Positions 14,412 through 62,846 of a DNA stretch of 64,000 nucleotides are shown piece after piece (position 1 is the stretch's first letter; each line of letters begins with the position of its first letter). The position numbers were made by a program, and so were the translations under genes. The notes below the pieces were generated by a model. The model made no database searches, had not been told where the DNA came from, and saw nothing but the letters and a program-made list of their open reading frames with translations. Origin of the DNA: Patescibacteria group bacterium (GTDB taxonomy: Bacteria > Patescibacteriota > Minisyncoccia > Portnoybacterales > UBA2143); NCBI GenBank assembly GCA_018830295.1, contig JAHJSM010000001.1, positions 386,203-450,202 on the forward strand. The letters are read 5' to 3'.

Positions 14412-14485
14412 GGGGACAGTCCCCCAGAGGGGACTGTCCCCTTGGGATTAAAATGGGGGCTGCCCCCGCAACGGGGGCAGCCCCC
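14412..14485. repeat. composite palindromic mini-element (type A pair plus type B pair)
   Basis: GGGGACAGTCCCCCAGAGGGGACTGTCCCC … GGGGGCTGCCCCCGCAACGGGGGCAGCCCCC. Confidence 0.9.
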
Positions 14486-14513
14486 ATTCATCGTCCCCAA
14501 ACATCTAAAAAAT

Positions 14514-14542
14514 TTGACAAATAACGAAAGATAACATATAAT
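14514..14542 (+). promoter_or_regulatory. perfect-consensus sigma70 promoter (TTGACA-17-TATAAT) for the cassette gene
   Basis: Exact consensus hexamers with a 17-nt spacer. Followed by a ~70-nt leader and an AAAGGAGG Shine-Dalgarno. Confidence 0.6.
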
Positions 14543-14613
14543 TTTACACAAGTAGGGTCTGCTGATTTTCAGCGGAAAATTGTATCTTAAAAATTGGATA
14601 AAGGAGGTTTGTT

Positions 14614-15330
14614 ATGACGACGAGAAAATTTGTTGTTACAGACGAACAAGAGAAGATTTTTCACAAAAGGCGGCGAGAACTGGAAAATAGGTTTTTCAAG
14701 GGTGCCTTAAATCCAGAAGATGTAAATCAAGGCTTACAGATGCTTATTGAGGGGCGAAAAGTAATAGTTTTTAAGGAGAAACCAAACATTCCGGCTTTAA
14801 TTGTTGACTGGCGAAACTTCTACAGCGAACTTGGAATTGAAGCAGATTTTTCAAACCTGCAAATTCCAAACAAGCAAAAAGGTTTTGACCATCTGATTAT
14901 CGTGGCGAAAGAAATGACACCGCAATTGCTCTACGACAAATGCGAAGAACTATTCCCCTGTTGGAAATGGACAGACAAGAATTTGGATGAAATTGTAGAA
15001 TCCGAAAGAACAGCCAAAAATGGCGCCTACGCCATTTGGGTCAGAGACAGAGTTGAAGCGGATGAAGAATTAAAAAATCTATCTGCTGACGACCTAAAAA
15101 ACAAAAACATTCCAGGCATTACTTTGGAAGAGCGACTCATTCACGAGCTCAAGTATTTCAAAGAAACTGGCAAACACTTAGATAGAGATAATGTTACTCT
15201 TTGCGCGGGTTCGCGCTATTCTGATGGCCATGTGCCGGGTGTCGACTGGTACGGTGGCAGGCTCGAGGTCGGCTGGCGCTCTCCTGACCGTCGCGGTGGC
15301 TTTTTGCGCGCTCGTCGGGCAGTTTCTTAA
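14614..15330 (+). CDS. hypothetical protein (238 aa), a repeat-flanked cassette gene replacing the infA…rplQ block
   Basis: Strong Shine-Dalgarno and ATG. No domain I can recognise. The last ~100 nt are conspicuously GC-rich compared with the rest of the window. Confidence 0.5.
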   Translation: MTTRKFVVTDEQEKIFHKRRRELENRFFKGALNPEDVNQGLQMLIEGRKVIVFKEKPNIPALIVDWRNFYSELGIEADFSNLQIPNKQKGFDHLIIVAKEMTPQLLYDKCEELFPCWKWTDKNLDEIVESERTAKNGAYAIWVRDRVEADEELKNLSADDLKNKNIPGITLEERLIHELKYFKETGKHLDRDNVTLCAGSRYSDGHVPGVDWYGGRLEVGWRSPDRRGGFLRARRAVS

Positions 15331-15372
15331 CCTTGTACCTTTTATCTTTTAACCTTTTCAAAAACAAAAAAA

Positions 15373-15404
15373 GCCGCTCTTTATAAAGAAGAGTGGCTTT
15401 TTTT
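15373..15404 (+). terminator. rho-independent terminator
   Basis: GCCGCTCTT-TATAAAG-AAGAGTGGC hairpin followed by TTTTTTT. Confidence 0.7.
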
Positions 15405-15409
15405 ATTCC

Positions 15410-15465
15410 GGGGACTGTCCCCTTGGGATTAAAACGGGGGCTGCCCCCGCAACGGGGGCAGCCCC
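15410..15465. repeat. composite palindromic mini-element, right flank of the cassette
   Basis: GGGGACTGTCCCCTTGGGATTAAAACGGGGGCTGCCCCCGCAACGGGGGCAGCCCCC. Near-identical to the left-flank copy, including the TTGGGATTAAAA linker. Confidence 0.9.
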
Positions 15466-15481
15466 CAAACCCTGCCTTAAA

Positions 15482-17257
15482 CTACTTCTTCCCCTCAATC
15501 TCTTCCCTCATTTTCTCAATAAACTTCCCAACTTCCATCGCGCCGAGATTGCCTTTTTGTCTTTGGCGGGGGGCGATGGTTTTTGATTTTTCTTCTTTTT
15601 CGCCGACGATAAGGAGGTAGGGGATTTTTTGCGTTTCGCCTGCGCGAATTTTTTTGCCAAGCGTTTCGTCGCTCTCGTCAATTTCAACGCGGATATTTTC
15701 TTTCTTTAATTGTTTGGCGACCTCCTTGGCGTATTTGTTGAATTTCTCGCTGATGGGGATAATTCGCGCTTGGACGGGAGCGAGCCAAACAGGGAAGGCG
15801 CCCGCAAAATGTTCAATCAATAACGCTAAAAATCTCTCATAAGACCCAAGGATGGCGCGATGAACCATAACGGGGTTTACTTCTCTGCCTTTCTCGTCGA
15901 TATAAGTCAAATCAAAGCGTTTGGGCGTGGCAAAATCCAACTGAACGGTCGGAATTTGTATTTCTTTGCCCAATGAATCCTTGAACATAAAATCAAGTTT
16001 TGGCCCATATAAAGCGGCTTCACCTTCCATCCTTTTTGCGTCTAATTTCATTTCGTCGGCGACTTCAGCCAAGATTTTTTCACATTTATCCCAATCCTTT
16101 GAATCTCCTATATATTTTTCGGGGTGGTCATAGTCCCTTAACGACAAAGACACCCAATGGTTCTCCCAAAGACCCAAGGCGGTATAGAATTCTTTAATAA
16201 TATTGACCATATTTTTAATTTCATCTTTAACTTGGTCAATTTTACAAAAAGAATGTCCGTCTTCAACTGTAATCGCGTAAACTCTATTTAAGCCACCGAC
16301 TTCCCCCGTTTTTTCGGCTCGGTATTGTTTCTCTGATTCCATATATCTGATCGGTAAATCGCGATAAGACCTTGTCCTTGAAGCGTAAATCTGCGTTTGA
16401 TGAGGGCATTGAACCGGCTTCATGGCGAATTTATGTCCTTTTTCCGAAGTGACATGAAAAAGTTCTTCGCTGAATTTTTTGGCGTGTCCCGAAAGTTCAA
16501 ATAATTCTATTTTGGCCAAATGAGGAGTCATTACTTTTTCAAAACCGTAATTTCTACAAACCGATTCAATATGTTTTTTTAATTCGTCAATTATAATTAC
16601 CCCCTTAGGCGTGAATAAAGGCAATCCTGGACCAACCAAATCGGAAAAAACAAATAAATCTAATTCTTTGCCTAATTTTCGATGGTCTCTCTTTTTCGCT
16701 TCTTCCACCATCGCTTGATATTCGTCCAATTCTTTTTTGCTTTCAAAGGCGATGCCGTAAATCCGCGTCAGCATTTTATTTTTTTCGTCGCCTCTCCAAT
16801 AAGCGCCGGCGATTTTCGTTAATTTAAAAGTGTCTAATTTAATTTCTTTAGTTGAAGAAACATGAGGGCCAAGACAAAGGTCAGTGAAGTCGCCGGTCTT
16901 GTAGATAGTGACCTTTTCTAAATCTTGAATCAATTCCACCTTATACGGCTGTTTTAATTTTTTGAATAATTTAATTGCTTCTTCAGCGTTTAATTCTTCT
17001 TTTTCAAATTTTACGCCTCTTTGAATTAGTCCTCTCATCGCTTTTTCTATCTTAGGCAGGTCATCAGGGGACAGTCCCTGCTTTGCGGGGACTGTCCCCG
17101 TAAAATCTGTCCCCGTAAAATCTATATCATAATAAAATCCGTTTTCAATAATTGGACCAATGCCAAACTTCGCCTCCGGATAAAGTTTTTGAACAGCCGC
17201 GGCGAGAATATGAGCCAAAGAATGGCGAATGATTTCAATTTTTAGTAGTTTAAACAT
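15482..17257 (-). CDS. thrS: threonyl-tRNA synthetase carrying an in-frame palindromic-element insertion
   Basis: Class II motifs and the editing-domain HxxxH. The repeat at 17067-17099 is translated as …DFTGTDFTGTVPAKQG…. Confidence 0.9.
   Translation of the reverse strand: MFKLLKIEIIRHSLAHILAAAVQKLYPEAKFGIGPIIENGFYYDIDFTGTDFTGTVPAKQGLSPDDLPKIEKAMRGLIQRGVKFEKEELNAEEAIKLFKKLKQPYKVELIQDLEKVTIYKTGDFTDLCLGPHVSSTKEIKLDTFKLTKIAGAYWRGDEKNKMLTRIYGIAFESKKELDEYQAMVEEAKKRDHRKLGKELDLFVFSDLVGPGLPLFTPKGVIIIDELKKHIESVCRNYGFEKVMTPHLAKIELFELSGHAKKFSEELFHVTSEKGHKFAMKPVQCPHQTQIYASRTRSYRDLPIRYMESEKQYRAEKTGEVGGLNRVYAITVEDGHSFCKIDQVKDEIKNMVNIIKEFYTALGLWENHWVSLSLRDYDHPEKYIGDSKDWDKCEKILAEVADEMKLDAKRMEGEAALYGPKLDFMFKDSLGKEIQIPTVQLDFATPKRFDLTYIDEKGREVNPVMVHRAILGSYERFLALLIEHFAGAFPVWLAPVQARIIPISEKFNKYAKEVAKQLKKENIRVEIDESDETLGKKIRAGETQKIPYLLIVGEKEEKSKTIAPRQRQKGNLGAMEVGKFIEKMREEIEGKK
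17067..17099. repeat. type A palindromic element inside thrS
   Basis: GGGGACAGTCCCTGCTTTGCGGGGACTGTCCCC, followed by two copies of CCCGTAAAATC. Confidence 0.85.
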
Positions 17258-17260
17258 AAT

Positions 17261-20200
17261 TTACTCTATTACTTTAACACTATCGCAAAGTATCTTCAAG
17301 TCGTCGTTTCGGTCGCTTAGACGACCTCCAAGAAGGACAATCGTCTCTTCTTGCCAGATATCGGGGTTTTTCGCAAGGACGCTTGGGAAAACCAACGCTT
17401 CTATTCGTCCAGTCATATCCTCAATTTCAACAAAAAGCATCGGTTGTCCTGTTCGCGTATTAATTCTTTTAATACGGTTAATAATACCTCCGACTTTAAT
17501 TCTAGTGCCAGCGTGGTTTTTGGAAATACTCTGGCATTTTATAGTTTTTCCCGCCAATTGTTTTTGATACGCTTTAAGGGGGTGTTCGGAAATATACAAA
17601 CCGAGCAGTTCTTTTTCCCAACCAAGCAGTTCTTTTTTTTCCGCGGGAGGGGCGGACGGCAATTTGAAAGACGGCGCGACCATTGGTTGGTCGCTAAACA
17701 AACTGATTTGTCCGTTCGCTTTGTTTTTTTGCGATTCGCGCGCCAAATTTAACATCATTTCAACAGCGTTCAAAAGTTGATTTCTTTCTCCAAAGGCGTC
17801 AAACGCGCCGCATTTAACCAAACTTTCCAGCGATTTCTTATTAAGGTCTTTTGAATTAACTCTTTCCAAGAAATCGGTGATTGATTTGAAGGCGCCGTTT
17901 GTTTTTCTTTCTTCAACAATAGCATGAACGACATTATCACCCACATTTTTGACCGCTTTTAAACCAAACCTAATGATTCTATCTCCCGCCTTGGTGAAAT
18001 CGTGGTTACTTTCATTAATGTCAGGAGGTAAAACTTTGACGCCTATTTGGTTACATTCATCAACCAAAAAAGAAATTCTTTCAATATCGTTTTGGTCGGA
18101 GGTCATGACGGCCGCCATAAATTCGGTTGGGTAGTGGGCTTTAAGATAGGCGGTTTGGTAGCCGATTAGGGCGTAGCAAGTCGCATGGGCGGCGTTAAAT
18201 CCATAGCCAGCGAACGGTTCTACCATCTGCCAGACCTTTTCGGCGATTTGACGGCTGATATTATTCTTAATCATTCCGTCAATCATTTTCTTCGCTTGCT
18301 CGTCCAAAAGTTTCTTAATTTTCTTTCCAACCGCTTTGCGAAGCGTATCCGCCTCAGCCGGAGTAAAAAGCGACAAATCGCGCGCGATTCTCATCAACTG
18401 TTCTTGATATACGCAATTGTGTACAATAATGTTGTTGGCAATAAAATTATGTGTTCCTTCCACTTCTAAATCATAAACATTTTCTTTTCCTTTACGCCGA
18501 ATAGAAGCAATGTCTTCCCATCTCGCATGTTTGTTTTGGCATAGATTTATTAATTCTTTATCTTTAAGGAAATAAGCGATTTTATTCGCTACTTGCAAAT
18601 TTAAGCGATTTTTTATTTTTCCTTCTTTGCCAAAAAATCCCTTTCGACTTATCTTCAAAATATTTGAGAGAGATCGTTGCGAAATGGAATATTTTTTTTG
18701 ATATTCAATAATTTTTTTAAGAAACGGTTTTCTCGGAACAAATTCCTTGCAATCTTCTATTGGTCGCTTTAAATATTCAGCAAGTCGTTTTTTCTTATCA
18801 GTTATCATTAGATGGCCTATTTGATTATAGAATTCTCGCAAATTGTAAATAATTATCCGATAAGATTGTATCATCTCATCGCGCTGGTTTTTATATTTTT
18901 CCACTCTGTAGATATGACTGTTGATGCCTAATTTTAATAAAAGAGTTTGGAGATCGTAAATAATTCTTTTGGAAATCGCGGTTAGATAGGCGGATTTTAG
19001 CGATATCCCGCCATCGCAGTCCCAAAAAGTCGCTAAAAACGCCGCGATACATTGATTATCTAATTCAAAGACAAATTTTGGTATAAATTTGTCAACTGAC
19101 TTTTTGCCGCCTTTTTTATCTTTCAACCCCAACTCTCTCATCCATTCCAACAAACTATTAGGTTGATGGTATTTGGTGGTAATTTTCTTTGATGGATTGG
19201 CGCGCTTGACGCCTCTAATATGTTCGCTGAATGTGATTTTTAGATTATCAAAGGCGTTAGCGCGTTTTTTGAAATCGTTTAATATTTTTTCGTCTTTATT
19301 AACTAAATAGCACGAATTATGGTTTGACAGAGCGCCGTCGGCGATTAAATATGCCAAAACCTTGAGTTTGTCTTCGTTGAATTTCTTTATTCCGGAAAAA
19401 AGTTTTTTAGGGGTCATGATAAAGTCGCCCTTTTCCAGATTTTTTAATTTTTTCCATCCATCCGGAGTTAAAAATTCATGGTCGGCAGTAGCTTTGATTT
19501 GTTTTCCTGTTCGCAATCGAATTTCATAAACATTTTTTATCCCGTTAATAAATTTATTAATAATTTTCTTTTTGACGAAAGATTTTCCGTTCCATGATTG
19601 AACATAAAGTTGCTTAGAAGAACCAATCGCTTCGTCTATGCGCAATATTCCGCCAGGATTTGCTTCTTGGACAAAAGAGTCGCCAGTAACACAAACGCCG
19701 TAAGTGTTTTTTAGGATTGGTTCAAGGAGTGGGTGGATGTATCTGACTTCTTTTAGTCCATGCTTGCGGGCGATGAAGTCGGGGATAAATTCCATTGGAC
19801 CGGGGCGGTAAAGCGCGACCATAGCGACAATATCCTCAAATTGGGTTGGCTTTAATTCTCTTAAATATCTCTTCATTCCGTTTGATTCCAATTGGAAGAC
19901 GCCAGTCGTGTTTGCTTCCTGAAAGACCTTGAATGTTTCTTCGTCGTCCATGGGGATATTAGCCAAATCAATATCTTTTCCGATTAATTCTTTAATTTGT
20001 CGAAGCGCGTTTTGAATAATCGTCAAAGTTTTTAACCCGAGAAAATCCATTTTTAAGAGGCCTAATTGTTCAATCGCGTGCATTTCATATTGTGTCACGA
20101 TCGTTTGGTCATCTTTGCCGGAGCGTTGGCAGGGAACCATATCATCAAGCGGTTCTTTCGTAATCACAACCCCGGCAGCGTGGGTTGAGGCGTGGCGGAC

Positions 20201-21697
20201 AACCCCTTCAAGTTTCATCGCCATATCAATCAGCCGTTTAATTTGCGGGTCTGACTCGTACGCTTTGTGAAGTTCTTGCGATTCATAAACGGCCTCTTTG
20301 AGCGACAAGCCAAAGGGAACCATTTTCGCCGTTTGGTCGCAAACGATGTAAGGGTAATCAAGGGCGCGTCCGACATCGCGGATAGAGCCGCGCGCCGCCA
20401 TCGTCCCAAAAGTAATAATTTGGGCGACATGGTTTTGCCCATATTTTTTCGCGACATATTCAATGACTTCGTTGCGGCGGTCGTCGGCGAAATCCAAGTC
20501 AATATCAGGCATTGAAACGCGCTCGGGATTTAAAAACCGTTCAAAAAGCAAATTGTATTTAAGCGGGTCAATTTCTGTAATGCCAAGCAAAAAGGCGATA
20601 AGCGAGCCCGCGGCTGAACCCCTGCCTGGGCCGACTCCGATTCCTTGCTCCTTCGCCCAGTCCACGAAATCACAGACGATCAGGAAATATGAAGCAAAAC
20701 CCATTTTGTTGATGATTTTCAATTCGTAATCAAGCCGTTCTATAATCTCTTTGCTTGTTCCGTCCGGATAGCGGGTCTTCAATTCTTGGCGGCAAGTTTT
20801 TTCCAAAACGCCGTCGGGCGTTTCTCCTTTGGGAACTTCAAAAGAGGGGAGTTGAATTGTATCAAGGACAAATCCAAAATCGCACTGCTGGACAATTTTT
20901 TGGGTATTAGAAATCGCGTCAGGCGTGTCTTTGAAATCCGCGACCATTCGCTCAATCGGCCGCAAGGAAAAATCGTTTTCTTTCATAGAGAGACGGTTTC
21001 CATCGTCCATTTTCTTGTCCATTTGGATGCTCATCAAAACATCCTGCGCTTCGGCGTCTTCGGGTTTGATATAGTGAACATCGTTCGTCGCGACCAAGGG
21101 GATATTGTTTTTTCGCGCGATTTTAATTATTCCATCGTTGGCGATTCTTTGTTCAGGTAAATCAGGATGGTTTTGGATTTCTAAATAGAAATTGCCCGCG
21201 CCAAATATTTCCTGATATTCAAGCGCCAATTTTTCCGCCTCGTCCAAGTGGCCGTTGATAATTGTCCGAGGAATTTCTCCGACAATACAGGCGGAAAGGG
21301 CGATTAACCCTTTGCTATGTTTTTTAAGAAGTTCTTTGTCAACGCGCGGCTTGTAATAGAAGCCCTCTAAATACGCTTTGGTCGTCAGTTTAACTAAATT
21401 GCGATAGCCCTCTTCGTTTTTAACCAACAAAACCAAGTGATACGATTTATTATCAATATTCGGCCTTTTTTGGAACATTCCATTGGGCGCAATATACATT
21501 TCGTTTCCTAAAATTGGACGAATTCCTCTCTTTTTCGCTTCCCGATAAAATTCAACCAGCCCATACATAGAGCCATGGTCGGTTAAAGCGATAGAAGGCA
21601 TCTTCAACTCCTGACACATATCCAACAAAGGCCCGATTTTAGCGAGCCCGTCCAAAAGAGAATAGTGCGAGTGAACATGAAGATGAGTGAAGGACAT
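17261..21697 (-). CDS. dnaE: DNA polymerase III alpha subunit interrupted by an intein
   Basis: PHP domain (HLHVHSHYSLLDG) and pol III alpha core. A 426-aa intein sits between …KNTYGV and CVYQEQLMRIA…, the conserved TYG(I/V)-[C/L]YQEQ site. Confidence 0.9.
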   Translation of the reverse strand: MSFTHLHVHSHYSLLDGLAKIGPLLDMCQELKMPSIALTDHGSMYGLVEFYREAKKRGIRPILGNEMYIAPNGMFQKRPNIDNKSYHLVLLVKNEEGYRNLVKLTTKAYLEGFYYKPRVDKELLKKHSKGLIALSACIVGEIPRTIINGHLDEAEKLALEYQEIFGAGNFYLEIQNHPDLPEQRIANDGIIKIARKNNIPLVATNDVHYIKPEDAEAQDVLMSIQMDKKMDDGNRLSMKENDFSLRPIERMVADFKDTPDAISNTQKIVQQCDFGFVLDTIQLPSFEVPKGETPDGVLEKTCRQELKTRYPDGTSKEIIERLDYELKIINKMGFASYFLIVCDFVDWAKEQGIGVGPGRGSAAGSLIAFLLGITEIDPLKYNLLFERFLNPERVSMPDIDLDFADDRRNEVIEYVAKKYGQNHVAQIITFGTMAARGSIRDVGRALDYPYIVCDQTAKMVPFGLSLKEAVYESQELHKAYESDPQIKRLIDMAMKLEGVVRHASTHAAGVVITKEPLDDMVPCQRSGKDDQTIVTQYEMHAIEQLGLLKMDFLGLKTLTIIQNALRQIKELIGKDIDLANIPMDDEETFKVFQEANTTGVFQLESNGMKRYLRELKPTQFEDIVAMVALYRPGPMEFIPDFIARKHGLKEVRYIHPLLEPILKNTYGVCVTGDSFVQEANPGGILRIDEAIGSSKQLYVQSWNGKSFVKKKIINKFINGIKNVYEIRLRTGKQIKATADHEFLTPDGWKKLKNLEKGDFIMTPKKLFSGIKKFNEDKLKVLAYLIADGALSNHNSCYLVNKDEKILNDFKKRANAFDNLKITFSEHIRGVKRANPSKKITTKYHQPNSLLEWMRELGLKDKKGGKKSVDKFIPKFVFELDNQCIAAFLATFWDCDGGISLKSAYLTAISKRIIYDLQTLLLKLGINSHIYRVEKYKNQRDEMIQSYRIIIYNLREFYNQIGHLMITDKKKRLAEYLKRPIEDCKEFVPRKPFLKKIIEYQKKYSISQRSLSNILKISRKGFFGKEGKIKNRLNLQVANKIAYFLKDKELINLCQNKHARWEDIASIRRKGKENVYDLEVEGTHNFIANNIIVHNCVYQEQLMRIARDLSLFTPAEADTLRKAVGKKIKKLLDEQAKKMIDGMIKNNISRQIAEKVWQMVEPFAGYGFNAAHATCYALIGYQTAYLKAHYPTEFMAAVMTSDQNDIERISFLVDECNQIGVKVLPPDINESNHDFTKAGDRIIRFGLKAVKNVGDNVVHAIVEERKTNGAFKSITDFLERVNSKDLNKKSLESLVKCGAFDAFGERNQLLNAVEMMLNLARESQKNKANGQISLFSDQPMVAPSFKLPSAPPAEKKELLGWEKELLGLYISEHPLKAYQKQLAGKTIKCQSISKNHAGTRIKVGGIINRIKRINTRTGQPMLFVEIEDMTGRIEALVFPSVLAKNPDIWQEETIVLLGGRLSDRNDDLKILCDSVKVIE
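18416..19693 (-). mobile_element. DnaE intein with a LAGLIDADG homing-endonuclease domain
   Basis: Starts CVTGDS… and ends …IVHN, followed by C+1. Internal LAYLIADG and FWDCDGG dodecapeptide motifs. Confidence 0.75.
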
Positions 21698-21773
21698 AAA
21701 ATTAGTATACCACCTCCACCCCCTCCCGCAAAGATTGACATTTCTTGAAAAATGGTTGTTTGGGGACTGAATT

Positions 21774-21853
21774 AAAAAGGTCAGACCTTTCAAAACGACA
21801 TTCTCGCGACTGCTTATTATTTAGTGACAAACTAATGGAAAGGTCTGACCTTT
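21774..21853. promoter_or_regulatory. two copies of the 15-bp palindrome AAAGGTCWGACCTTT in the divergent dnaE/ligA control region
   Basis: AAAGGTCAGACCTTT at ~21776-21790 and AAAGGTCTGACCTTT at ~21839-21853. The first copy extends as AAAGGTCAGACCTTTCAAAACGACATTCTCGCGAC. Confidence 0.5.
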
Positions 21854-24290: not shown

Positions 24291-25735
24291 ATCTCAATCA
24301 ACTTACAATTAAAGAAGCTCATCAAGGCCTTTTGAAGAAGGAATTTTCTTCGGTGGAACTGACCGAGGCGGTTTTGGGGCAGATTAAAAGGCGTAATCAA
24401 GAAATTAACGCCTATTTGGTCTTGACCGAAGAAATGGCGTTGACGCAAGCCAAAAAGGTGGACAAAATGATTGCTAATAACGAAGAAATTGGTCTTTTGG
24501 CGGGCATTCCTGCCGCGATTAAGGATAATATCATGATTGACGGCGTTCAGTGTACGGCCGCCTCAAAAATTTTGGAAAATTACATCGCGCCTTATGACGC
24601 GACAGTTATTAAAAAACTTAAAAAACAAGGCGCGGTTTTTGTTGGCAAAACAAATTTGGATGAATTCGCGATGGGGTCTTCAACCGAGAATTCGGCGTTT
24701 GGTCCGACTAAAAATCCGCGCGATTTGAGTCGTGTTCCAGGCGGAAGTTCGGGCGGGTCCGCGGCGGCTGTCGCCGATGACCAGTGTATTTACGCGTTGG
24801 GTTCTGACACAGGCGGTTCTATCCGCCAGCCAGCTTCTTTTTGCGGGGTGGCCGGATTAAAGCCGACTTATGGCTCGGTTTCTCGTTATGGGCTCATCGC
24901 TTTCGCTTCTTCTTTGGACCAAATCGGACCGCTCGCGAAAACGACCGAGGATTGTCAGATTATTTTTGAGGCGATTAATGGTAGAGACGAAATGGACGCG
25001 ACGAGTTTTAATTTCGGAAACCAAGTTTCCGCCGGAAACTCGGTTTCCAATCTTAAGATAGGAATTCCTAAGGAATATTTTGTGGCGGGGATTGACTCGG
25101 CAGTGGAGGAGGCGGTGAGGGGGGCAATTTCTCAATACGAGAAAATGGGATTTGAAATTGTGGAAATAAGTTTGCCTCACACCGAATACGCCTTGCCCGT
25201 TTACTATATTATTATGCCCGCCGAAGCGTCTTCTAATTTAGCCCGTTATGATGGAATTAAATACGGGCTTTCGGAAATTGACAAAGATTTATTGGGTGGA
25301 TACTTAAAAACGCGACAAAAGGGATTTGGCGATGAAGTCAAAAGAAGAATTATGCTCGGGACTTATGTTTTGTCGGCTGGCTATTACGACGCTTATTATC
25401 TTAAAGCGCAAAAAGTGAGAACTTTAATTAAGAACGACTTCTTGAAGGCGTTTGAAAAAGTAGATGTTTTAATCACGCCGACCGCGCCCACGCCCGCTTT
25501 CAAAATCGGGCAGAAAATAGCCGACCCTGTTTCAATGTATCTTTCGGATATTTACACAATTTCCGCGAACTTAGCTGGTTTACCCGCTATCTCTATTCCT
25601 ATTAAAAGCAACAGTCCTTTGCCGATAGGCATGCAAATTATAGGTAAACAATTTGGAGAAAATGATATTTTTAAAATAGCGCGCGCTTATGAGAATTTGG
25701 GGACAGTCCCCGCAACAGGGACTGTCCCCAAATAA
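24287..25735 (+). CDS. gatA: Asp/Glu-tRNA amidotransferase subunit A, C-terminus encoded by a palindromic element
   Basis: Amidase signature GGSSGGSAAAVA. The last residues …LGTVPATGTVPK come from the repeat at 25698-25729. Confidence 0.9.
25698..25729. repeat. type A palindromic element at the gatA 3' end
   Basis: GGGGACAGTCCCCGCAACAGGGACTGTCCCC. Confidence 0.85.
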
Positions 25736-26275: not shown

Positions 26276-26278
26276 ATG

Positions 26279-26454: not shown

Positions 26455-26482
26455 TCGGGTGGGTTTTAAATTAATAACCTTG

Positions 26483-56056: not shown

Positions 56057-56091
56057 GGGGACAGTCCCCATTCTGAATGGGGACTGTCCCC
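56057..56091. repeat. type A palindromic element
   Basis: GGGGACAGTCCCCATTCTGAATGGGGACTGTCCCC. Confidence 0.9.
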
Positions 56092-56144: not shown

Positions 56145-58607
56145 ATGGAGGGGAAGACAAAACAATTTGGGCGGGTTTTTACCGCTTTGTATGATATTAA
56201 GCCCGTTACGGCGGCGGGCGTTTTAGATGTTGAAAGGATAGAGAAGATAACCGACATTTTGGATTTAAGTGGGGAGAAGAAAAAAGAATTTATTCCTTAC
56301 GATTTGCCAAAAGAAGAATCTTTTAATTTTATTTTAACAAATACAGACGATTTGGATGTTTTGCCAACTCGCGAGGAAATTTTGGCGGAGTTGAATAAAA
56401 TTGAAAATTTTGAAGAATTTTTAAGGGCGGCCGAAGAGGGGGAGAGAAAAAATAAAGCGCAAGAGGAAAAAGCGCAAGCGGATATTTTGGATAAAAACAA
56501 TCAAAGGTCAGACCTTTCAAAACGACATTCTCGTGACCTCAATTCTCTTCCACGGATATCGGGGTTAGAGGAATTTTATTTTCCCGAGGTGGCGCGAGGA
56601 ACAGTTTTAGTCGCGGAGAGCGAGGATAAAAAAGAGGTCCGGGCGGATGGGAATAAATCTTTGTTTAAATTTTTAATGGCAGGGATTTTAATTGCTTTAA
56701 TTGTTCCGGCGGCCACTTGGGTTGGGTATGGGTTTAAAATCAAAGAGGATGTTTTAAGTAGCGGGCTTTCGGCTTATCAAAATCTTTTGTCCGCCAAACA
56801 GTCGTTAGAAGAGTCTGATTGGCAGGATGCCGAGCATAATTTTGGATTGGCGCGTTCAGATTTTTTTGAAGCGCATCAAGATATTAATCAATTAGGTCGG
56901 TTGACTTTAGGCGTCTTGGAACAAATGCCGGGCGGTTCTTTAATTTCTTCGGGCAGTCATTTAGTTAAAGTTGGCGAGAGTTTAGCGCGAGCGGGCGAAG
57001 GACTTGCCGCGGCGGTTAATCTTTTTTCTTTAAATAATTTATTTAATCTTGTTGAATCGCCGCAAGGCGGGACTCTAACGGATTCAATCGCTTTAAGTAA
57101 GGATAATTTAAGAGCGGCTTTGACCGAGATTGAGACGGCCAATCAGGAGATTGAACAGATTAAAATCAAATCGTTGCCGGAAGATATCCAAAGCGGCATT
57201 CTTTTTTTGAAAGAAAATTTGCCTTTGGTTAAAGAAACGCTTTCTCAAGCGCTTGATTATTCAGTGGCATTTTTGAGCATTTTAGGGCATGATAATCCTC
57301 GCCAGTATCTTTTAATTTTTCAAAACAACGGTGAAGCGAGGGCGACAGGCGGATTTATCGGGACTTATGGCTTAATCACATTAGACAGAGGCGCGTTGAC
57401 GAACCTTTTCATAGACGGTATTTATAACGCGGACGGACAGTTGCGAGAAAAAATTATTCCTCCGCAGCCGATTCAAAAAATTAGCACCGCTTGGTCAATG
57501 CATGACGCGAACTGGTTCGCTGACTTTCCGACTTCCGCCCAAAAAGTGGCTTGGTTCTACGAAAAAACAGGCGGGCCGACGGTTGATGGTGTGATTAGTT
57601 TGACACCGACTGTAGTTGAACGCCTCTTGGCGTTAACTGGCCCTATTTCTATGCCGGAATACGGCGTTGAATTGGACGCGAGCAGTTTTGTTGAATTAAT
57701 TCAATACAAAGTGGAGACCGACTATGATAAAGAGTTAAATCAGCCAAAAAAGATTTTGGCGGATTTTGCTCCGAAATTTATTAAACAAATAGGCGAGTTA
57801 TCCGCGGAAAAAAAGAAAGAGGCGGTGGAAATTATTTTTGATTGCTTAGAAGAAAAACATATCTTAGTGTTTTTTAGTAATCCTTCTTTGGAAAAATTAG
57901 CGGACGAAGAGGGGTGGTCGGGAAAGATTCTTTCAACGGATAAGGATTATTTAAGCGTCGTTTCGTCAAACATTAATGGCTACAAAACAGATTGGGTGAT
58001 TAAAGAAACAATTGCTCATCAGGCGGAAATTCAAGGAGACGGTTCGGTTATTGACACACTCACTATTACTCGCCAGCATCAGGGAGGCGATTTGGCATAC
58101 GATTGGTGGAACAGAGTTAACGCGAATTATTTGAGGGTTTATTTGCCTTTAGGGAGTCAGTTGATTTCCGCTGAGGGGCAAAGTTTAGAAATTTATCAGC
58201 CGCCGATTGATTATGAAGAAAATAATTTTAAAAAAGACCCGCTGGTTGAGAAGATTGAGAGTAGTATGATTATTGACTCTAAAACTGGAACGCGCATTTT
58301 TGAAGAAAGCGGCAAAACAGTTTTTGCCAACTGGGCTTATGTTAGTCCGGGCGAAACGGTTGTTTTGACCTATAAATACAAATTGCCTTTCAAGATTGGC
58401 TTGACCGGGGCGACTGATAGTTATAGTTTGTTAACGCAAAAGCAGTTAGGCAGTTTAGGAAGCGCCTTTAGTCATCAATTAAAGTTTCCGTCTAACTGGC
58501 AGGTCTCATGGAGATATCCAGAAACATCTAGACTAAACGCGGGAGGAATTAATTTTAACGGCGACCTAAAAACAGATAAATTCATCGGCGCGTCATTTGA
58601 ATTTTGA
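56145..58607 (+). CDS. large hypothetical membrane-anchored protein (820 aa) upstream of murJ
   Basis: ~175-aa cytoplasmic N-terminus, one TM (LFKFLMAGILIALIVPAATWVGYGF), then a large extracytoplasmic domain. Carries an in-frame copy of the AAAGGTCAGACCTTTCAAAACGACATTCTCGTGAC repeat (56503-56538). Confidence 0.5.
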   Translation: MEGKTKQFGRVFTALYDIKPVTAAGVLDVERIEKITDILDLSGEKKKEFIPYDLPKEESFNFILTNTDDLDVLPTREEILAELNKIENFEEFLRAAEEGERKNKAQEEKAQADILDKNNQRSDLSKRHSRDLNSLPRISGLEEFYFPEVARGTVLVAESEDKKEVRADGNKSLFKFLMAGILIALIVPAATWVGYGFKIKEDVLSSGLSAYQNLLSAKQSLEESDWQDAEHNFGLARSDFFEAHQDINQLGRLTLGVLEQMPGGSLISSGSHLVKVGESLARAGEGLAAAVNLFSLNNLFNLVESPQGGTLTDSIALSKDNLRAALTEIETANQEIEQIKIKSLPEDIQSGILFLKENLPLVKETLSQALDYSVAFLSILGHDNPRQYLLIFQNNGEARATGGFIGTYGLITLDRGALTNLFIDGIYNADGQLREKIIPPQPIQKISTAWSMHDANWFADFPTSAQKVAWFYEKTGGPTVDGVISLTPTVVERLLALTGPISMPEYGVELDASSFVELIQYKVETDYDKELNQPKKILADFAPKFIKQIGELSAEKKKEAVEIIFDCLEEKHILVFFSNPSLEKLADEEGWSGKILSTDKDYLSVVSSNINGYKTDWVIKETIAHQAEIQGDGSVIDTLTITRQHQGGDLAYDWWNRVNANYLRVYLPLGSQLISAEGQSLEIYQPPIDYEENNFKKDPLVEKIESSMIIDSKTGTRIFEESGKTVFANWAYVSPGETVVLTYKYKLPFKIGLTGATDSYSLLTQKQLGSLGSAFSHQLKFPSNWQVSWRYPETSRLNAGGINFNGDLKTDKFIGASFEF

Positions 58608-60250
58608 TGATAAAACGATTTTTTAATAATCAATCAAAGACGATTTTTTCGGCCGCTGTTGTTTTAGGAGCGGCTTCTTTTGTAAGTCGTTTTTTGGGTT
58701 TGATTCGTGATAAAATTTTGGCAGGAATGTTTGGCGCGGGCGGAGAGTTGGATGCGTATTACGCCGCTTTTCGCATTCCGGATTTAATTTATTCTTTGCT
58801 TGTTTTAGGCGCCGTTTCGGCTGGCTTTATTCCTGTCTTTGTTAATTATCTCAACCAAGATAAAAAAACGCAAGATACGAATCATTGGCATTTAGCCAAT
58901 AGCGTTCTTAATTTAATGGCCTTGTCTTTAATGGCGGCGTGTTTTCTTTTGGCGATTTTCGCTCCTTGGATAATGAAATTAGTCGCGCCTGGTTTTTCCG
59001 CGGAGCAGTTGTCGCTTGCTTCCCAATTAACCAGAATTATGTTTTTAAGCCCTTTCTTTATGGGTTTGTCCGCGATTTTTGGAGGCATTTTGCAAAGTTT
59101 TCGTCGATTTCTCGCTTACGCGATGGCGCCGATCGCGTATAATTTAGGCATTATTTTTGGCGCTTTGGTTTTGACAAATTATTTTGGTCTTTTAGGTTTG
59201 GCTTATGGCGTGGCGCTTGGCTCTTTTTTTCATTTGGCGATTCAAATTCCGACTGCTTTTCTCTGCGGATTTAGGTGGCGTCCAGTTTTTGACTTCAGGT
59301 TTGACGGCGTCAGAAGGATTTTCAAATTAATGCCCGCGCGGGTCTTGAGTTTAGGGCTTTCCCAGATTACGATTTGGATTATGACTGCTTTTGCTTCTCT
59401 TCTGACGGTTGGGAGCATCGCGATTTATAGTTTGACTTTGAATATTTGGAGTTTTCCTTTGGGTGTCTTTGGCGTTTCTTTCGTTGTGGCGGCTTTTCCC
59501 AAACTTTCCGAAACGGCGCAGAAAAATGATTTGGAAGGATTTATTAAAACATTCTATTCCGCCGTCCGCCAAATACTTTTCTTTATTCTTCCATCGTCTG
59601 CTTTGTTTATTGTTTTGCGAACGCATCTCGTTAGTATCATTCTCCAAGGCGGTCGATTCGGTCCACAAGAAACGGCTTTAGCCGCGGAAACACTAGCGTA
59701 TTTTTCAATCGCTTTATTCGCCGAAGCGTTGGTTCTTCTTTTCTTGCGATGCTATTTCGCTTGGGAAGATTCCAAAACGCCATTTTTAATCGGCTTCGCG
59801 GCAATGGCGGCGCGGCTCTCGGCGGCTTGGGTTTTGTCCTATTCGCTGGGCGTGGCAGGTTTGGCGCTTGGCTATGCCATAGGAAGTATTTTTTATTTGA
59901 TTTTACTGGCGGTCTTTTTTAGGGCGAAACTTAGGAAAAAGTTTGGCGCGGGCGTTAATTTGAATGGAAAAGATGTTCTTATTTCAGGAATAAAAATGGT
60001 CTCAGCTTCTTTTCTCGCTGCTTTGGCGAGTTGGCTTTTTTTGCGGTCTTTCGGAGAAATTATTTGCCATAAGGGCGTTTTTGAAATATGCTGTCAGGGC
60101 GGAATGGCGGGCATAATCGGCGTTTTGTCGTATTTCTTTTTCGCTTGGGTCTTCCGATTAAGCGAACTGGATTTATTTGTCAAAGCATTATCGCGCCGCC
60201 TGCCTTGGAAGAAAATATCATGGTTCGGAATTGGAAGCGGGAGGGAGTAA
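58604..60250 (+). CDS. murJ: lipid II flippase MurJ (MviN family)
   Basis: MurJ N-terminal signature (…LGLIRDKILAGMFGAGGELDAYYAAFRIPDLIYSLLVLGAVSAGFIPVF…) and ~14 TM helices. Confidence 0.85.
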   Translation: MMIKRFFNNQSKTIFSAAVVLGAASFVSRFLGLIRDKILAGMFGAGGELDAYYAAFRIPDLIYSLLVLGAVSAGFIPVFVNYLNQDKKTQDTNHWHLANSVLNLMALSLMAACFLLAIFAPWIMKLVAPGFSAEQLSLASQLTRIMFLSPFFMGLSAIFGGILQSFRRFLAYAMAPIAYNLGIIFGALVLTNYFGLLGLAYGVALGSFFHLAIQIPTAFLCGFRWRPVFDFRFDGVRRIFKLMPARVLSLGLSQITIWIMTAFASLLTVGSIAIYSLTLNIWSFPLGVFGVSFVVAAFPKLSETAQKNDLEGFIKTFYSAVRQILFFILPSSALFIVLRTHLVSIILQGGRFGPQETALAAETLAYFSIALFAEALVLLFLRCYFAWEDSKTPFLIGFAAMAARLSAAWVLSYSLGVAGLALGYAIGSIFYLILLAVFFRAKLRKKFGAGVNLNGKDVLISGIKMVSASFLAALASWLFLRSFGEIICHKGVFEICCQGGMAGIIGVLSYFFFAWVFRLSELDLFVKALSRRLPWKKISWFGIGSGRE

Positions 60251-60253
60251 AAT

Positions 60254-62080
60254 ATGATACCTCAATCACATATTCGGAATTTTTCTATTATCGCGCATAT
60301 TGACCACGGGAAGTCCACTTTGGCTGACCGTTTTTTGGAATTGACGGGGACGGTTGAGAAAAGAAAGATGCGGGAACAGGTTTTGGATATGATGGATTTG
60401 GAAAGAGAAAGGGGGATTACGATTAAACTTCAGCCGGCGCGGATGGAATACACATATAAGGGCGAGCGGTATCTTTTGAATTTGATTGATACGCCCGGGC
60501 ATGTTGATTTCGCTTACGAGGTTTCGCGGAGTTTGGCGGCGGTGGAGGGGACAATTCTATTAGTTGACGCGAGCCAAGGAGCGCAAGCGCAAACACTCGC
60601 CAATCTTAATTTGGCGCGCGGGCAGAATTTGATTATTATCCCCGTGGTTAATAAAATTGATTTAGGACACGCTAAAGTTGATGAAGCGATTAAAGAGATT
60701 AGCCAATTAACTGAAGTTGGCGAAGAAGATGTTATTAAAATTTCCGCTAAAAGCGGATTGAATGTGGAGCGGGTCTTGGAAGAGGTTATTAAAAAAATTC
60801 CCGCGCCAACGGGCGAATTTGAAAAACCTTTAAGGGCTTTGATTTTTGATTCCTCTTACGACACATACAAAGGCGTGATCGCATACATTAGAATCGTGGA
60901 TGGGGAAATTAAAAGGGGTGACAAAGTAGAGATGTTCGCTTCGGGAGTTCAAACGGAAGTTATTGAGGTTGGGGTTTTTAGGCCAATGCTCGTTAAGATA
61001 GAAACATTAAGAGCGGGCGAAACGGGATATGTTGCCACGGGCCTGAAAGAAATCGGGCAGTGCCGGGTGGGCGACACGATTATTTCGCCAAAAAGGGGAC
61101 AGTCCCCATTCAAAATGGGGACTGTCCCCGTTATTCTTCCTTTGCCCGGATACAAAGAGCCGAGTCCGCTCATTTTCGCCAGCTTTTATCCTGTGGACGC
61201 GAACGATTACGATCTTCTCAAAGACGGACTCGCTAAATTAAATTTAAGCGACGCTTCTCTGGTTTATGAATTAGAATCGTGCGAAGGATTGGGACGCGGC
61301 TTTCGTTGCGGATTTTTAGGGATGCTTCATTTAGAAATTGTTTCAGAGCGGCTTAAAAGGGAATACGATTTAGACTTGGTGACGACCTCGCCTTCGGTCA
61401 GTTACCGTATTTTGGATGATTCACAAAGAGGGTATCAAGTAATTTCTTCCGCTTCTGATTTTCCTGACGCGAGCAGGTTCGCGGAGACCCAAGAGCCGTG
61501 GATCAATTTGGAAATTATTACGCCCGTAAATTATTTGGGTCAAACAATGAAAATTTTGGAAAATTTAAGAGGTATTTATGGCGAGACCCAGTATTTAAGC
61601 AGTGAAAGAGTTTTAATTAAATATGAAGCTCCTTTGGGCGAAATTATTATTGATTTTTATGACAAACTTAAAAATGTAACGGCCGGTTACGCGTCCATGA
61701 GTTATGAATTATCGGATTATCGTCCAGCCGACTTAACGCGACTTGATATTTTAATCGCCGGAGAAAAAGCAGAGGCGTTTTCTCGGATTGTCCCGCGCGC
61801 GAAGGCGGACCAAGAAGGAAGGGCTTTGGTTAAGAAACTCAAAGAAGTTATTCCTTCTCAATTATTTACAATCGCTTTACAGGCGGCGATTGGCGGAAAG
61901 GTTATCGCTCGCGAAACGATTAGCGCTTTGCGAAAAGATGTGACGGGCTACCTTTATGGCGGCGACTATTCCCGTAAAAGAAAACTTTTGGAAAAACAAA
62001 AAAAGGGTAAAAAAAAGATGATGCAATCAGGGAGAGTCAATATTCCTTCAGATGTGTTTTTGAAGGTGTTGAAGAAGTAA
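60254..62080 (+). CDS. lepA: elongation factor 4 (LepA) with an in-frame palindromic-element insertion
   Basis: IRNFSIIAHIDHGKSTL and DTPGHVDF motifs, and the LepA C-terminal domain. The repeat at 61094-61128 is translated as …RGQSPFKMGTVPVILP…. Confidence 0.95.
   Translation: MIPQSHIRNFSIIAHIDHGKSTLADRFLELTGTVEKRKMREQVLDMMDLERERGITIKLQPARMEYTYKGERYLLNLIDTPGHVDFAYEVSRSLAAVEGTILLVDASQGAQAQTLANLNLARGQNLIIIPVVNKIDLGHAKVDEAIKEISQLTEVGEEDVIKISAKSGLNVERVLEEVIKKIPAPTGEFEKPLRALIFDSSYDTYKGVIAYIRIVDGEIKRGDKVEMFASGVQTEVIEVGVFRPMLVKIETLRAGETGYVATGLKEIGQCRVGDTIISPKRGQSPFKMGTVPVILPLPGYKEPSPLIFASFYPVDANDYDLLKDGLAKLNLSDASLVYELESCEGLGRGFRCGFLGMLHLEIVSERLKREYDLDLVTTSPSVSYRILDDSQRGYQVISSASDFPDASRFAETQEPWINLEIITPVNYLGQTMKILENLRGIYGETQYLSSERVLIKYEAPLGEIIIDFYDKLKNVTAGYASMSYELSDYRPADLTRLDILIAGEKAEAFSRIVPRAKADQEGRALVKKLKEVIPSQLFTIALQAAIGGKVIARETISALRKDVTGYLYGGDYSRKRKLLEKQKKGKKKMMQSGRVNIPSDVFLKVLKK
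61094..61128. repeat. type A palindromic element inside lepA
   Basis: GGGGACAGTCCCCATTCAAAATGGGGACTGTCCCC. Confidence 0.85.
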
Positions 62081-62227
62081 AAAATTACAGGTATGATTAA
62101 AACATCGGCGCGAGGAGGAAAGAGGACATGCTCAAAATAACGAGCGCGGCAAGAACAATCCAAGACCAGCGAAAAAGTTTGTTTTTAGTTGATAGTTTCA
62201 TATTTTTATAATAAACCAAAACGACAA

Positions 62228-62644
62228 ATGATTCAACAATCTCGCGACGAGAATATTATTAAAAAGGTTTTGGGTTCAAAGATTTTCCTCTTCTTAGCTG
62301 TTTTGGCTTTGATTTATTTAGTGATTAATTTAGGCAGAGAAAGTTATCGCAAGCATCAATTAACGAAAGAAGTTGATAATTTAAAATTAGAGATTGAACG
62401 GTTAGAGGGAAGCAATCAGCAATTGGCGAATTTGATGGACTATTTTAAAGAAGAGTCGTTTATAGAAAAAGAAGCTCGTCTTAAACTTAATCTGAAAAAA
62501 CCAGGCGAAAAGGTTGTTATTTTATCCGACTATTTTAACACAAGTTCTAATCTTGACGCTTTATCTAATGGCAGCCATAATACGGAGACGACAGAAGAAG
62601 AGTCGTCTAATTATTGGAAATGGTGGGAGTATTTTTTCCAGTAG
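62228..62644 (+). CDS. FtsB/DivIC-like septum formation initiator
   Basis: Short cytoplasmic N-terminus, one TM, then a coiled coil (…LTKEVDNLKLEIERLEGSNQQLANLMDYFKEESFIEKEARLKLNL…). Confidence 0.55.
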   Translation: MIQQSRDENIIKKVLGSKIFLFLAVLALIYLVINLGRESYRKHQLTKEVDNLKLEIERLEGSNQQLANLMDYFKEESFIEKEARLKLNLKKPGEKVVILSDYFNTSSNLDALSNGSHNTETTEEESSNYWKWWEYFFQ

Positions 62645-62651
62645 AATAATT

Positions 62652-62722
62652 GCGGATGTAGCTCAATGGCAGAGCGTCTGCTTCCCAAGCAGATGACGAG
62701 GGTTCGATTCCCTTCACCCGCT
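62652..62722 (+). tRNA. tRNA-Gly (CCC)
   Basis: Acceptor GCGGAUG/CACCCGC with one A·C mismatch, D-arm GCUCAAUGGCAGAGC, anticodon loop UUCCCAA, T-arm GAGGGUUCGAUUCCCUU. Confidence 0.85.
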
Positions 62723-62728
62723 CACGAA

Positions 62729-62800
62729 GCCGAGGTAGCTCAAGGGTAGAGCAACGCACTCGTAACGCGTAGGTTGTGGGTTCGATTCCCACCCTCGGCT
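62729..62800 (+). tRNA. tRNA-Thr (CGU)
   Basis: Acceptor GCCGAGG/CCUCGGC, D-arm GCUCAAGGGUAGAGC, anticodon loop CUCGUAA, T-arm GUGGGUUCGAUUCCCAC. Confidence 0.85.
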
Positions 62801-62817
62801 CACGAATTAGCAATTTA

Positions 62818-62846
62818 GGGACAGTCCCCAAGAGGGGACTGTCCCC
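62818..62846. repeat. type A palindromic element
   Basis: GGGACAGTCCCCAAGAGGGGACTGTCCCC. Confidence 0.9.

Follow-up and report, generated by a model that had tools for sequence, protein, structure and literature searches.

The window analysed here, the whole 64,000-nt stretch of contig JAHJSM010000001.1 (assembly GCA_018830295.1) of a Patescibacteria group bacterium of the order Portnoybacterales, carries a family of GC-rich palindromic mini-elements, which lie in intergenic DNA as well as, in frame, in the genes thrS, gatA, pheT, folD and lepA and in a fused pair of GT4 genes. LepA and other proteins of the window likewise point to the Patescibacteria, close to Candidatus Portnoybacteria. 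The single unit is a near-palindrome of 13 nt, GGGGAC-W-GTCCCC (general form G4-[A/G]C-W-G[T/C]-C4), whose reverse complement differs from it at the central base only. Exact copies of GGGGRCWGYCCCC were found 27 times in the window and copies with at most two mismatches 37 times, against expectations of 0.00 and 1.22, respectively, in 100 shuffles of the window searched in both ways (shuffle maximum of 5 for the near-exact copies). The 37 units, i.e., approximately 1 unit per 1.7 kb, group into 20 loci spanning positions 14412 to 62846 and nearly always form inverted pairs with 3–9 nt between the two units, confirming what a first reading of the DNA by eye, made without database searches (the sequence-only reading), had proposed.

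Each element is a perfect hairpin of 31–39 bp whose 12–19-bp stem in many cases ends in a triloop. The order GGGGACAGTCCCC-loop-GGGGACTGTCCCC (CAG-then-CTG) is common to the eight type A pairs without exception, as is GGGGGCTGCCCCC-loop-GGGGGCAGCCCCC (CTG-then-CAG) to the six pure type B pairs, two polarity states that are not interconvertible by flipping the strand. Besides these, there are two A/B hybrid doublets (49927–49957 and 55483–55515) and a third variant, AGGGACWGTCCCT, at 29272–29304 and 54314–54343, in which four terminal bases are altered in a compensated way. The loops fall into the subfamilies GCAAC/GTTGC, ATTC-WW-AAT and MAGA. The GC content of the elements is 0.54–0.88, compared to 0.37–0.46 for the window (average of about 41%). 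The window has 23 perfect hairpins whose arms reach 9 bp or more; 15 of these belong to the family, as do all that have arms of 12 bp or more. When folded as single-stranded DNA, the elements reach −15 to −21 kcal/mol each (z = −4 to −9). The elements gave no Rfam match, neither at the gathering threshold nor at E values up to 0.5, and no conserved flank was seen beside the palindromes in the window. The loci are dispersed singly across 48 kb and their spacers are 3–9 nt long, which sets them apart from a regular array of the CRISPR type with its unique spacers of at least 25 nt.

Twelve of the 20 loci are intergenic. A type A doublet, GGGGACAGTCCCC-CAGA-GGGGACTGTCCCC (14412–14441), starts 6 nt past the map stop codon and is followed by a type B doublet, GGGGGCTGCCCCC-GCAAC-GGGGGCAGCCCCC (14455–14485), which together with the unit at 14429 constitutes the left-hand copy of a composite direct repeat 57 nt in length. 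The right copy (15410–15466), located 15 nt past the thrS stop codon, consists of a single type A unit, TTGGGATTAAAAC, and then a type B doublet. Further along the window, a type A doublet fills the spacer between rplK and the next gene (34757–34787), a type B doublet with a third type B unit (41750–41808) lies 3 nt past the stop codon of a radical-SAM methylthiotransferase gene on the minus strand, and a type B doublet with the loop GCGGC (49382–49412) lies 7 nt past the rnhA stop codon, upstream of rnpB. Downstream of rnpB, a 113-nt insertion holds two doublets, one of type B and one an A/B hybrid (49875–49957). The remaining intergenic copies described here are two type A doublets, one with the loop ATTCTGAAT located 3 nt past a GT4 stop codon (56057–56091) and one between tRNA-Thr and a release-factor gene (62817–62846).

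The intergenic loci share the approximately 10% of the window that is non-coding (about 90% is coding), an enrichment of about six-fold, as expected under purifying selection. Most of them lie 3–15 nt from a stop codon or flank rnpB or tRNA-Thr, and this placement, together with the very high stability of the hairpins and the conservation of the composites at 14.4 and 15.4 kb among relatives, would be consistent with structural sites that benefit the host, i.e., 3′ mRNA stabilisers, terminators, or binding sites for nucleoid or topology proteins. We nevertheless consider such a role highly improbable as the explanation of the family, since eight loci lie within open reading frames (ORFs), most copies are dispensable in near-identical strains (see below), copies in relatives decay by point mutation, and, given the shortness of the spacers, an intergenic insert will in any case adjoin a stop codon. 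Intrinsic terminators in particular were ruled out by the location of the eight intragenic loci and by the presence of a T-tract directly 3′ of the hairpin in only 1 of 18 hairpins; ordinary terminators adjoin the copies at 15.39 and 41.72 kb.

The eight intragenic loci leave every ORF intact. In thrS, which is on the minus strand, a type A doublet (17067–17099) encodes ...TGTVPAKQGLSP... and adjoins an exact 15-nt tandem duplication in which TGTCCCCGTAAAATC occurs twice (17093–17122), covering the outer half-arm plus 8 nt of flank and encoding a repeated DFTGT; similar half-unit echoes follow 7–8 nt after three elements (those in thrS, at 14486 and at 55516). A type A doublet makes up the last 12 codons of gatA (25699–25729; LGTVPATGTVPK, then the stop codon), the variant doublet AGGGACAGTCCCT-CTGAAAG-AGGGACTGTCCCT is in frame in the B5 domain of pheT (29272–29304), and a single type B unit is in frame in folD (38962–38974; IGGLPPK). 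In the GT4-GT4 gene, a variant doublet lies in frame in the first module (54314–54343), a type B doublet forms the linker that joins the two GT4 genes (54907–54937), and a hybrid doublet lies in frame in the second module (55483–55515). Finally, lepA contains an in-frame type A doublet (61095–61129; RGQSPFKMGTVP). Pfam confirms the identity of all of these genes, and the in-frame copies and peptides named in the sequence-only reading were recovered, with the coordinates of the thrS, gatA, pheT, folD and lepA copies right to within 1–2 nt.

None of the six frames of the 13-mers has a stop codon, and the peptides they encode are Gly...Pro turns (GTVP, GQSP, GDSP, GAAP, GLP), which differ with the frame of insertion. 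In an AlphaFold model of LepA (mean predicted local distance difference test score, pLDDT, of 77.5), residues 281–292 are coil with pLDDT <50 in the linker between domains II and III, and the lepA insert is thus predicted to sit in a disordered interdomain linker. The GT4-GT4 protein has 767 aa, while in a relative from the Portnoybacteria (contig L224) two genes of 384 aa each are separated by 12 nt, the first matching residues 1–386 and the second residues 400–767 of the window protein. Because the genes are separate in this relative, the element at 54907–54937 must have replaced a stop codon and a spacer, fusing the two GT4 genes.

Empty sites, gain events and the descent of copies

The comparison with orthologues and close relatives bears directly on the age of the elements. 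LepA of the window has a 16-residue loop, DTIISPKRGQSPFKMGTVPVILPLPGY, where eight relatives of 79–97% identity have a loop of 10 residues (e.g., DTITVGAERRKKVKVLPLPGY). Fifteen ThrS orthologues are without the 11–13 residues found at the position of the element, a comparison made at the protein level with relatives from a metagenome scan that were no closer than 65–67% identity, and PheT has about 5 extra residues at the element compared to the structure in PDB entry 2rhq_B. At the DNA level, contigs of relatives that are 96–99.9% identical to the window allowed the comparison of 13 loci, of which eight are empty in the relatives and five are shared; no copy was confined to a relative. Five loci are empty in the relative L001, which covers 49.4–63.3 kb of the window (49875–49957, 54314, 56057, 61095 and 62817), and three are shared, including those at 49382 and 55483. 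The nine contigs across 26.4–41.4 kb do not contain one unit: the spacer downstream of rplK is without its copy in all nine, the pheT site is empty (PheT has 656 aa in L203–L205 and 660 aa in the window), and the folD site has a different, shorter sequence (FolD of 252 aa, compared to 254 aa in the window). The composites at 14.4 and 15.4 kb are shared with relatives, and the doublet at 14412 is conserved in four of these (L212–L214 and L218) and altered in L215 and L219. The copy in gatA is also present in a contig of another strain (L231).

At the rplK site, the 1174 nt upstream are 99.8–100% identical to the relatives and the next 1.4 kb downstream has one difference. Within 26.4–41.4 kb, elements are involved in three of the seven structural differences from near-identical strains. 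Considering that orthologues are without the encoded peptides and that near-identical genomes have empty sites, the elements are derived and recent; that they are insertions and not ancestral sequence had been claimed in the sequence-only reading for thrS, pheT and lepA.

All of these sequences come from metagenome assemblies and from nothing else, which raises the question of whether the elements could be assembly or chimera artefacts, or the peptides ancestral segments. Three independent assemblies give identical sequence: contig k141_539904 (744,622 bp) of the ENA assembly ERZ27247117 is 100% identical to the window over 20.4 kb, GCA_018820055.1 is 100% identical across 10 kb holding five elements, and a contig of the same strain in the Logan assembly SRR6514730 (L232), which starts within the 62817 element, matches the window exactly from that point on across the 70 nt compared. 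Because independent assemblies are identical through the elements and the reading frames are preserved at all eight intragenic loci, artefact is excluded as an explanation, and with the orthologues that are without the peptides, we regard this whole alternative as extremely improbable.

The empty and filled sites also make the gain events readable. The sequence-only reading had suggested a search for target-site duplications; these are absent in seven of the eight empty/filled comparisons, and target bases are replaced instead, over about 8–40 nt. At the rplK spacer, AGTTAGAT was lost, approximately 10 nt of target were replaced and three nearby bases differ, while in lepA approximately 30 nt were replaced by about 48. 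In folD, about 40 nt upstream of the unit cannot be aligned, and at 62.8 kb 57 nt stand in place of 20 nt. The sole direct repeat, CTTGATTTT(T)AG, is 11–12 nt long and bounds the 113-nt insertion at 49.9 kb, which contains other sequence in addition to its two doublets. A comparison of the replaced flanks with the rest of the window indicated that they were not copied from there, the hairpin being all that the copies have in common.

Copies share 33–38 nt at 95–100% identity and nothing beyond the stem plus 1–4 nt. The matching pairs are those of rplK and gatA (38 nt, 97% identical), of lepA and 56057 (37 nt, 95% identical), and of 49875 with 14455, 41750 and 54907, the 14455 doublet having 36 nt identical to 49873–49908 in reverse orientation. 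If doublets had been assembled independently from randomly oriented single units, the probability of the uniform polarity observed would be about 2 × 10^-4. The fixed polarity of each type, the shared loop subfamilies and the sharp ends of the copies therefore show that the copies descend from a few master copies.

Relatives further show that one type is converted into the other in place. In L215, the first unit of the left composite is flipped and the second is decaying, and in the left composite of L219 a unit of type B stands at the position of the type A unit of the window, with a loop that also differs. Together with the hybrid and decayed copies, these unit swaps among relatives substantiate the turnover that the sequence-only reading had suspected. 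Two motifs at ~33547 and ~36632, which had been listed there as related, lie in indels that relatives lack but do not belong to the family; the indels themselves (33468–33579 and 36565–36647) contain other small hairpins, TTAAAGGTCAGACCTTTAA, GGACAGTAAGTCC and GCGACAGTCGC, that are only loosely family-like. Besides, the DUF4012 gene has a 27-nt in-frame insertion (57052–57078) that is absent from L001, forms a CGCC-GCAA-GGCG hairpin and is an inverted repeat of the adjacent native CGGATTCAA; judging from this arrangement, it looks like the product of a fold-back template switch.

The positions at which the window differs from its relatives are strongly clustered, with near identity of the sequences between the clusters. 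Short clusters of single-nucleotide polymorphisms (SNPs) at 58180–58330, 59230–59380 and 36523–36560, with approximately 10–15% divergence across 100–150 nt, suggest frequent short-tract recombination with diverged strains. The contig L231 (ERZ27247128) is colinear with the window through gatA and a 177-aa ORF and then diverges within the tRNA-Asp gene after GGGCTCGAACC (window 26276–26352), which may be an integration site in the 3′ half of the tRNA.

The composites at 14429–14485 and 15410–15466 bracket a strain-variable gene slot between map and thrS. In the window, the slot holds an ORF of 238 aa (14614–15330), in place of which relatives have an unrelated ORF of 308 aa (14396–15319 in L212). 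The exchange points, at 14608 and 15355, lie outside the palindromes and the window has no integrase, and integron attC cassettes were rejected on these grounds. The family of the 238-aa ORF comprises 1,729 representatives at 50% clustering, all named members of which are Patescibacteria, sometimes with two copies per genome, and it has no match in Pfam, NCBIfam, PADLOC or PDB. The 238-aa protein was also rejected as the mobilising enzyme, given that three homologues in other genomes have no motif within 4–10 kb on either side and that relatives keep the composites around the unrelated ORF. A similar arrangement was seen at 1863–2747 of a locus from another Patescibacteria genome (L065, 32% GC), where identical A+B hybrid doublets, GGGGACAGTCCCC-CGTCCGC-GGGGGCTGCCCCC, in direct orientation bracket a gene with a NYN domain (PIN-like nuclease), echoing the bracketed slot at 14.4–15.4 kb. 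In the ribosomal-protein/secY/adk/map cluster, relatives have a HicB/HicA antitoxin–toxin pair annotated between secY and adk, a stretch (about 12510–13005 of the window) over which the identity between window and relatives is 99%.

A second, unrelated family of in-frame palindromes is represented in relatives by GTCATTGCGAGCCCCGCGAAGCAATCC...GAGATTGCCGCG...CTCGCAACGAC in the N-terminal part of pheT (28464–28563), where the window has a different hairpin, and a distant LepA homologue (P0102) has an insert of about 40 residues of this second kind (IASERSERGNP...APRNDK) in the loop that holds the lepA element of the window. GyrB (30214–33468) has 1084 aa with an intein (Pfam Intein_splicing), compared to 639–648 aa and no intein in relatives of 96–99% identity; the homology breaks at 31548 and resumes at 32857, a presence/absence polymorphism of the intein between near-identical strains. 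DnaE (17261–21793, minus strand) also has an intein, with a LAGLIDADG homing-endonuclease domain, at residues ~740–1126, and the contig of GCA_018820055.1 departs from the window inside dnaE, continuing with an N6/N4 methyltransferase ORF. A group I intron on the minus strand (26557–26764; Rfam RF00028, 87.7 bits) lies beside tRNA-Asp and a weak tRNA-Met (32.5 bits) and probably splits a tRNA gene missed by ARAGORN; a 144-aa ORF on the opposite strand to the intron (26420–26854) has no Pfam match. The release-factor gene downstream of the 62817 doublet (62875–63624) encodes 249 aa that match positions 96–194 of the PCRF profile and the whole RF-1 domain, the usual N-terminal part being missing; in two other Patescibacteria genomes, the release factor has 253 aa (L222) and 368 aa (L224).

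The 13-mer core in other bacteria and comparison with known element classes

A scan for the doublet in one genome per species (596 Gb) indicated that the core of the elements extends far beyond the Patescibacteria. The doublet occurs in at least 120 loci, from which the results given here derive, in at least 15 phylum-level groups and in genomes of 32–76% GC, while by our own estimate fewer than about 20 doublets would be expected by chance even with all 596 Gb at 70% GC. The groups among the matches listed are Planctomycetota (including Kuenenia), Omnitrophota, Actinomycetota, Coriobacteriia, Thermoleophilia, Geobacteraceae, Myxococcaceae, Pseudomonadota, Acidobacteriota/Aminicenantes, WOR-3, Armatimonadota, Thermotogae, Bacteroidales, Nitrospira, Binatia, Lentisphaerae, Saccharibacteria, Portnoybacteria and other Patescibacteria. 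The matches listed are overwhelmingly of type A, although the pattern admitted GC-richer variants, and many of their genomes have several copies, in some cases as arrays (nine units with an 18-nt period in L091). Among the matches listed from other phyla, 94 pairs are direct and 39 inverted; as direct pairs are the commoner there, the strictly inverted form of the window is one flavour of the family. The base next to the unit in other phyla is a weak C at position −1, with nothing more conserved.

In low-GC loci, doublets were again found in frame within genes, namely in a MiaB gene of the Omnitrophota (three times), in a 908-aa ORF of the Planctomycetia and in an 889-aa ORF of the Saccharibacteria. 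When the Omnitrophota MiaB is aligned with the structure 7mjz, all three segments fall in alignment gaps. In another Patescibacteria genome, whose LepA is 70% identical to that of the window, the same loop of LepA contains a palindrome of 58 nt based on GGGACTGTCCC...GGGACAGTCCC.

The distribution of the motif is patchy, since three other Patescibacteria loci of 15–21 kb contain no units. Viral contigs gave no strict match and one degenerate match, plasmids gave insignificant partial matches only (E ≥2), and there were no matches in E. coli genomes. No gene family is enriched near the motif in an all-against-all BLASTP comparison of 3,936 stop-to-stop ORFs (L002–L121), the recurring families being only generic ones, i.e., response regulators, ABC ATPases, short-chain dehydrogenases and extracytoplasmic function (ECF) sigma factors. 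No full-length autonomous partner with the same terminal repeats was seen among the at least 120 loci listed from other genomes. In the literature, the 13-mers and their 11-mers were not found in a bacterial context, nor was an account found of such elements in the candidate phyla radiation (CPR), Omnitrophota or Planctomycetes. Based on this distribution, we tentatively propose, with somewhat less than even confidence, that the GGGGAC(A/T)GTCCCC doublet is the core of an undescribed superfamily of ultra-small (~30–60 bp) mobile hairpins. Members of this superfamily would have settled in frame within protein-coding genes of at least 15 phyla, from Patescibacteria and Omnitrophota to Planctomycetota and Actinomycetota, and would pass horizontally between hosts with neither phages nor plasmids as carriers. 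They would owe their mobilisation to a sequence-specific enzyme or else to the uptake and repair capture of nuclease-resistant hairpin DNA, and would give rise to fusions and new surface loops.

Several known classes of elements resemble those of the window in part. Rickettsia palindromic elements, known only from Rickettsia, fall into ten families, each with its conserved peptide, and measure about 150 bp, or about 100–150 bp as a defining range (PMC10969869). As in Rickettsia (PMC10969869), palindromes of the window sit in frame in unrelated housekeeping genes and in intergenic DNA, the extra peptides are tolerated, and no mobilising enzyme is known in either case. In contrast, the elements described here have 31–39 bp made of two 13-mers and a loop, their host is one of the Patescibacteria, and many phyla share their core. 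The difference in length by itself rules out homology across a whole Rickettsia palindromic element; the two are set apart by description and not by alignment. The sequence-only reading had compared the behaviour of the family to that of the Rickettsia elements while calling its sequence distinct: the likeness in behaviour is supported and the length, sequence and host that define the Rickettsia elements differ here, so that the distinctness holds with respect to these elements, but the core is not peculiar to the lineage, occurring as it does in many phyla.

Miniature transposable elements with inverted repeats (MITEs, e.g., Correia) are non-autonomous, strain-variable and able to fuse to ORFs (PMC10969869). 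They also have target-site duplications, lengths of 100–400 bp or more and an origin from insertion sequences. The elements of the window have neither such duplications, on which ground they were excluded from the MITEs, nor such lengths, and an origin from an insertion sequence does not appear to apply to them either. In size and behaviour, the nearest analogue is provided by the GC clusters of fungal mitochondria, which are nevertheless organellar, eukaryotic and unrelated in sequence. These GC clusters, together with PstI palindromes and double-hairpin elements, are tiny GC-rich palindromes in AT-rich genomes, polymorphic between strains and located both between genes and in frame within them; no transposase and no core shared in this way across lineages is known for them.

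In Neisseria and Haemophilus, DNA uptake sequences and uptake signal sequences are motifs of 9–13 nt that occur about once per 1–2 kb, frequently arranged as inverted pairs directly behind genes, and that are also found within genes in frames that are tolerated. A 13-mer preferred by a competence machinery could likewise accumulate through biased uptake and recombination, and the density of the units, the pairs directly past stop codons, the SNP clusters indicating frequent short-tract recombination in the population and the failure to find a transposase would all be compatible with this. Uptake signals are, however, expected species-wide, in all strains and mostly arising by substitution, whereas the elements here are strain-polymorphic insertions: most copies are missing from close relatives and copies add residues. 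The motif is also present in unrelated phyla over the whole range of 32–76% GC and missing from the unit-free Patescibacteria loci described above. Overall, we consider an uptake signal very unlikely.

Repetitive extragenic palindromes (REPs) are short, GC-rich, high-copy palindromes that cluster after genes, two inverted REPs forming one long hairpin, the REPIN (described in part in PMC3184786 and 10.1101/119743). The doublets of the window share this architecture, with two inverted palindromes of 13 + 3–9 + 13 nt and stems of 12–19 bp, but are three to four times shorter than typical REPINs. By analogy, they could be substrates of a single-strand hairpin transposase (HUH/Y1, similar to the REP-associated tyrosine transposases, RAYTs) that is encoded once elsewhere and excises or copies them from the lagging-strand template, which would account for the single long hairpin around a spacer, for the sharply defined ends of the copy units, for the burst of the element in one strain and, through recognition by a protein, for a core kept across phyla. 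REPs are, however, extragenic, have a GTAG/GTGG head and come with a single-copy RAYT flanked by REPs, while 40% of the loci here are intragenic, no conserved head of the GTAG type adjoins the palindromes, and neither head nor RAYT, nor any other Y1 transposase, was found among the scanned ORFs of the window and its annotated flanks. The gene between the composites is variable and its family is unlinked to the motif elsewhere. Finally, target bases were lost in the gain events described above, while insertion of the IS200/IS605 type is precise. We therefore judge a mechanism of the REPIN type to be unlikely, albeit less so than an uptake signal.

Proposed mobilisation of the elements and its implications

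Considering the empty sites, the loss of target bases and the descent from few masters together, we think it likely that the elements are selfish, non-autonomous palindromic mini-elements that are copied by break or template-switch repair. New copies appear in spacers just past stop codons and in the loop-coding parts of genes, where selection would keep only the frame-restoring events. Because the empty/filled comparisons show replacement of the target and no target-site duplication, installation by cut-and-paste with a staggered cut is disfavoured, and repair of a break or gap seems to be the better explanation. A stalled or broken 3′ end might copy an existing hairpin by template switching, after which synthesis would rejoin a few bases away; alternatively, a nuclease-resistant hairpin fragment might be captured at a break. 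Template-switch correction of the near-palindromes could keep the arms perfectly complementary and could also produce the A/B hybrids, and short-tract homologous recombination would move filled alleles between strains. The insertion at 57052–57078 was counted as evidence that fold-back synthesis operates in this genome. As to what starts the process, a dedicated sequence-specific enzyme, i.e., a nuclease or transposase encoded elsewhere, has in our view about an even chance, while it is rather doubtful that host replication and repair act alone.

Several points weigh against this proposal. As the differences from relatives are clustered and some of the clusters are pure SNP tracts, some of the "new" copies may have been imported by recombination from an unsampled donor lineage rather than inserted in this strain. 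Translation of the inserts is suggested by the intact ORFs, and the intergenic copies may have a function. Pfam scans of the window ORFs and precomputed annotations of related loci did not reveal a mobilising gene: nearly all window ORFs of at least 100 aa have Pfam assignments, and none is a transposase. Moreover, host repair alone does not readily account for an identical 13-mer shared by at least 15 phyla, which points to a sequence-specific protein, the missing piece that is the main weakness of repair-based copying as the favoured account.

Until now, selfish DNA that lives in essential genes without destroying them has been an oddity of Rickettsia and fungal mitochondria. The window shows it in a minimal form, with only a loop and two 13-mers, in a bacterial genome that is among the smallest, and the empty sites in close relatives allow the gain events to be followed at single-base resolution. 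Through the elements, proteins acquire new loops and, in the GT4-GT4 case, two genes were fused. The strain differences that they cause matter for strain-resolved metagenomics and for assembly breaks, as the contig that starts inside one of them illustrates. There is a substantial chance that a widespread class of minimal mobile hairpins, not described before, has been sighted for the first time in the elements of the window. One 13-mer that recurs in many phyla without a known carrier or enzyme would imply a nuclease or transposase of a new kind, or else a spread of DNA that does without a transposase.

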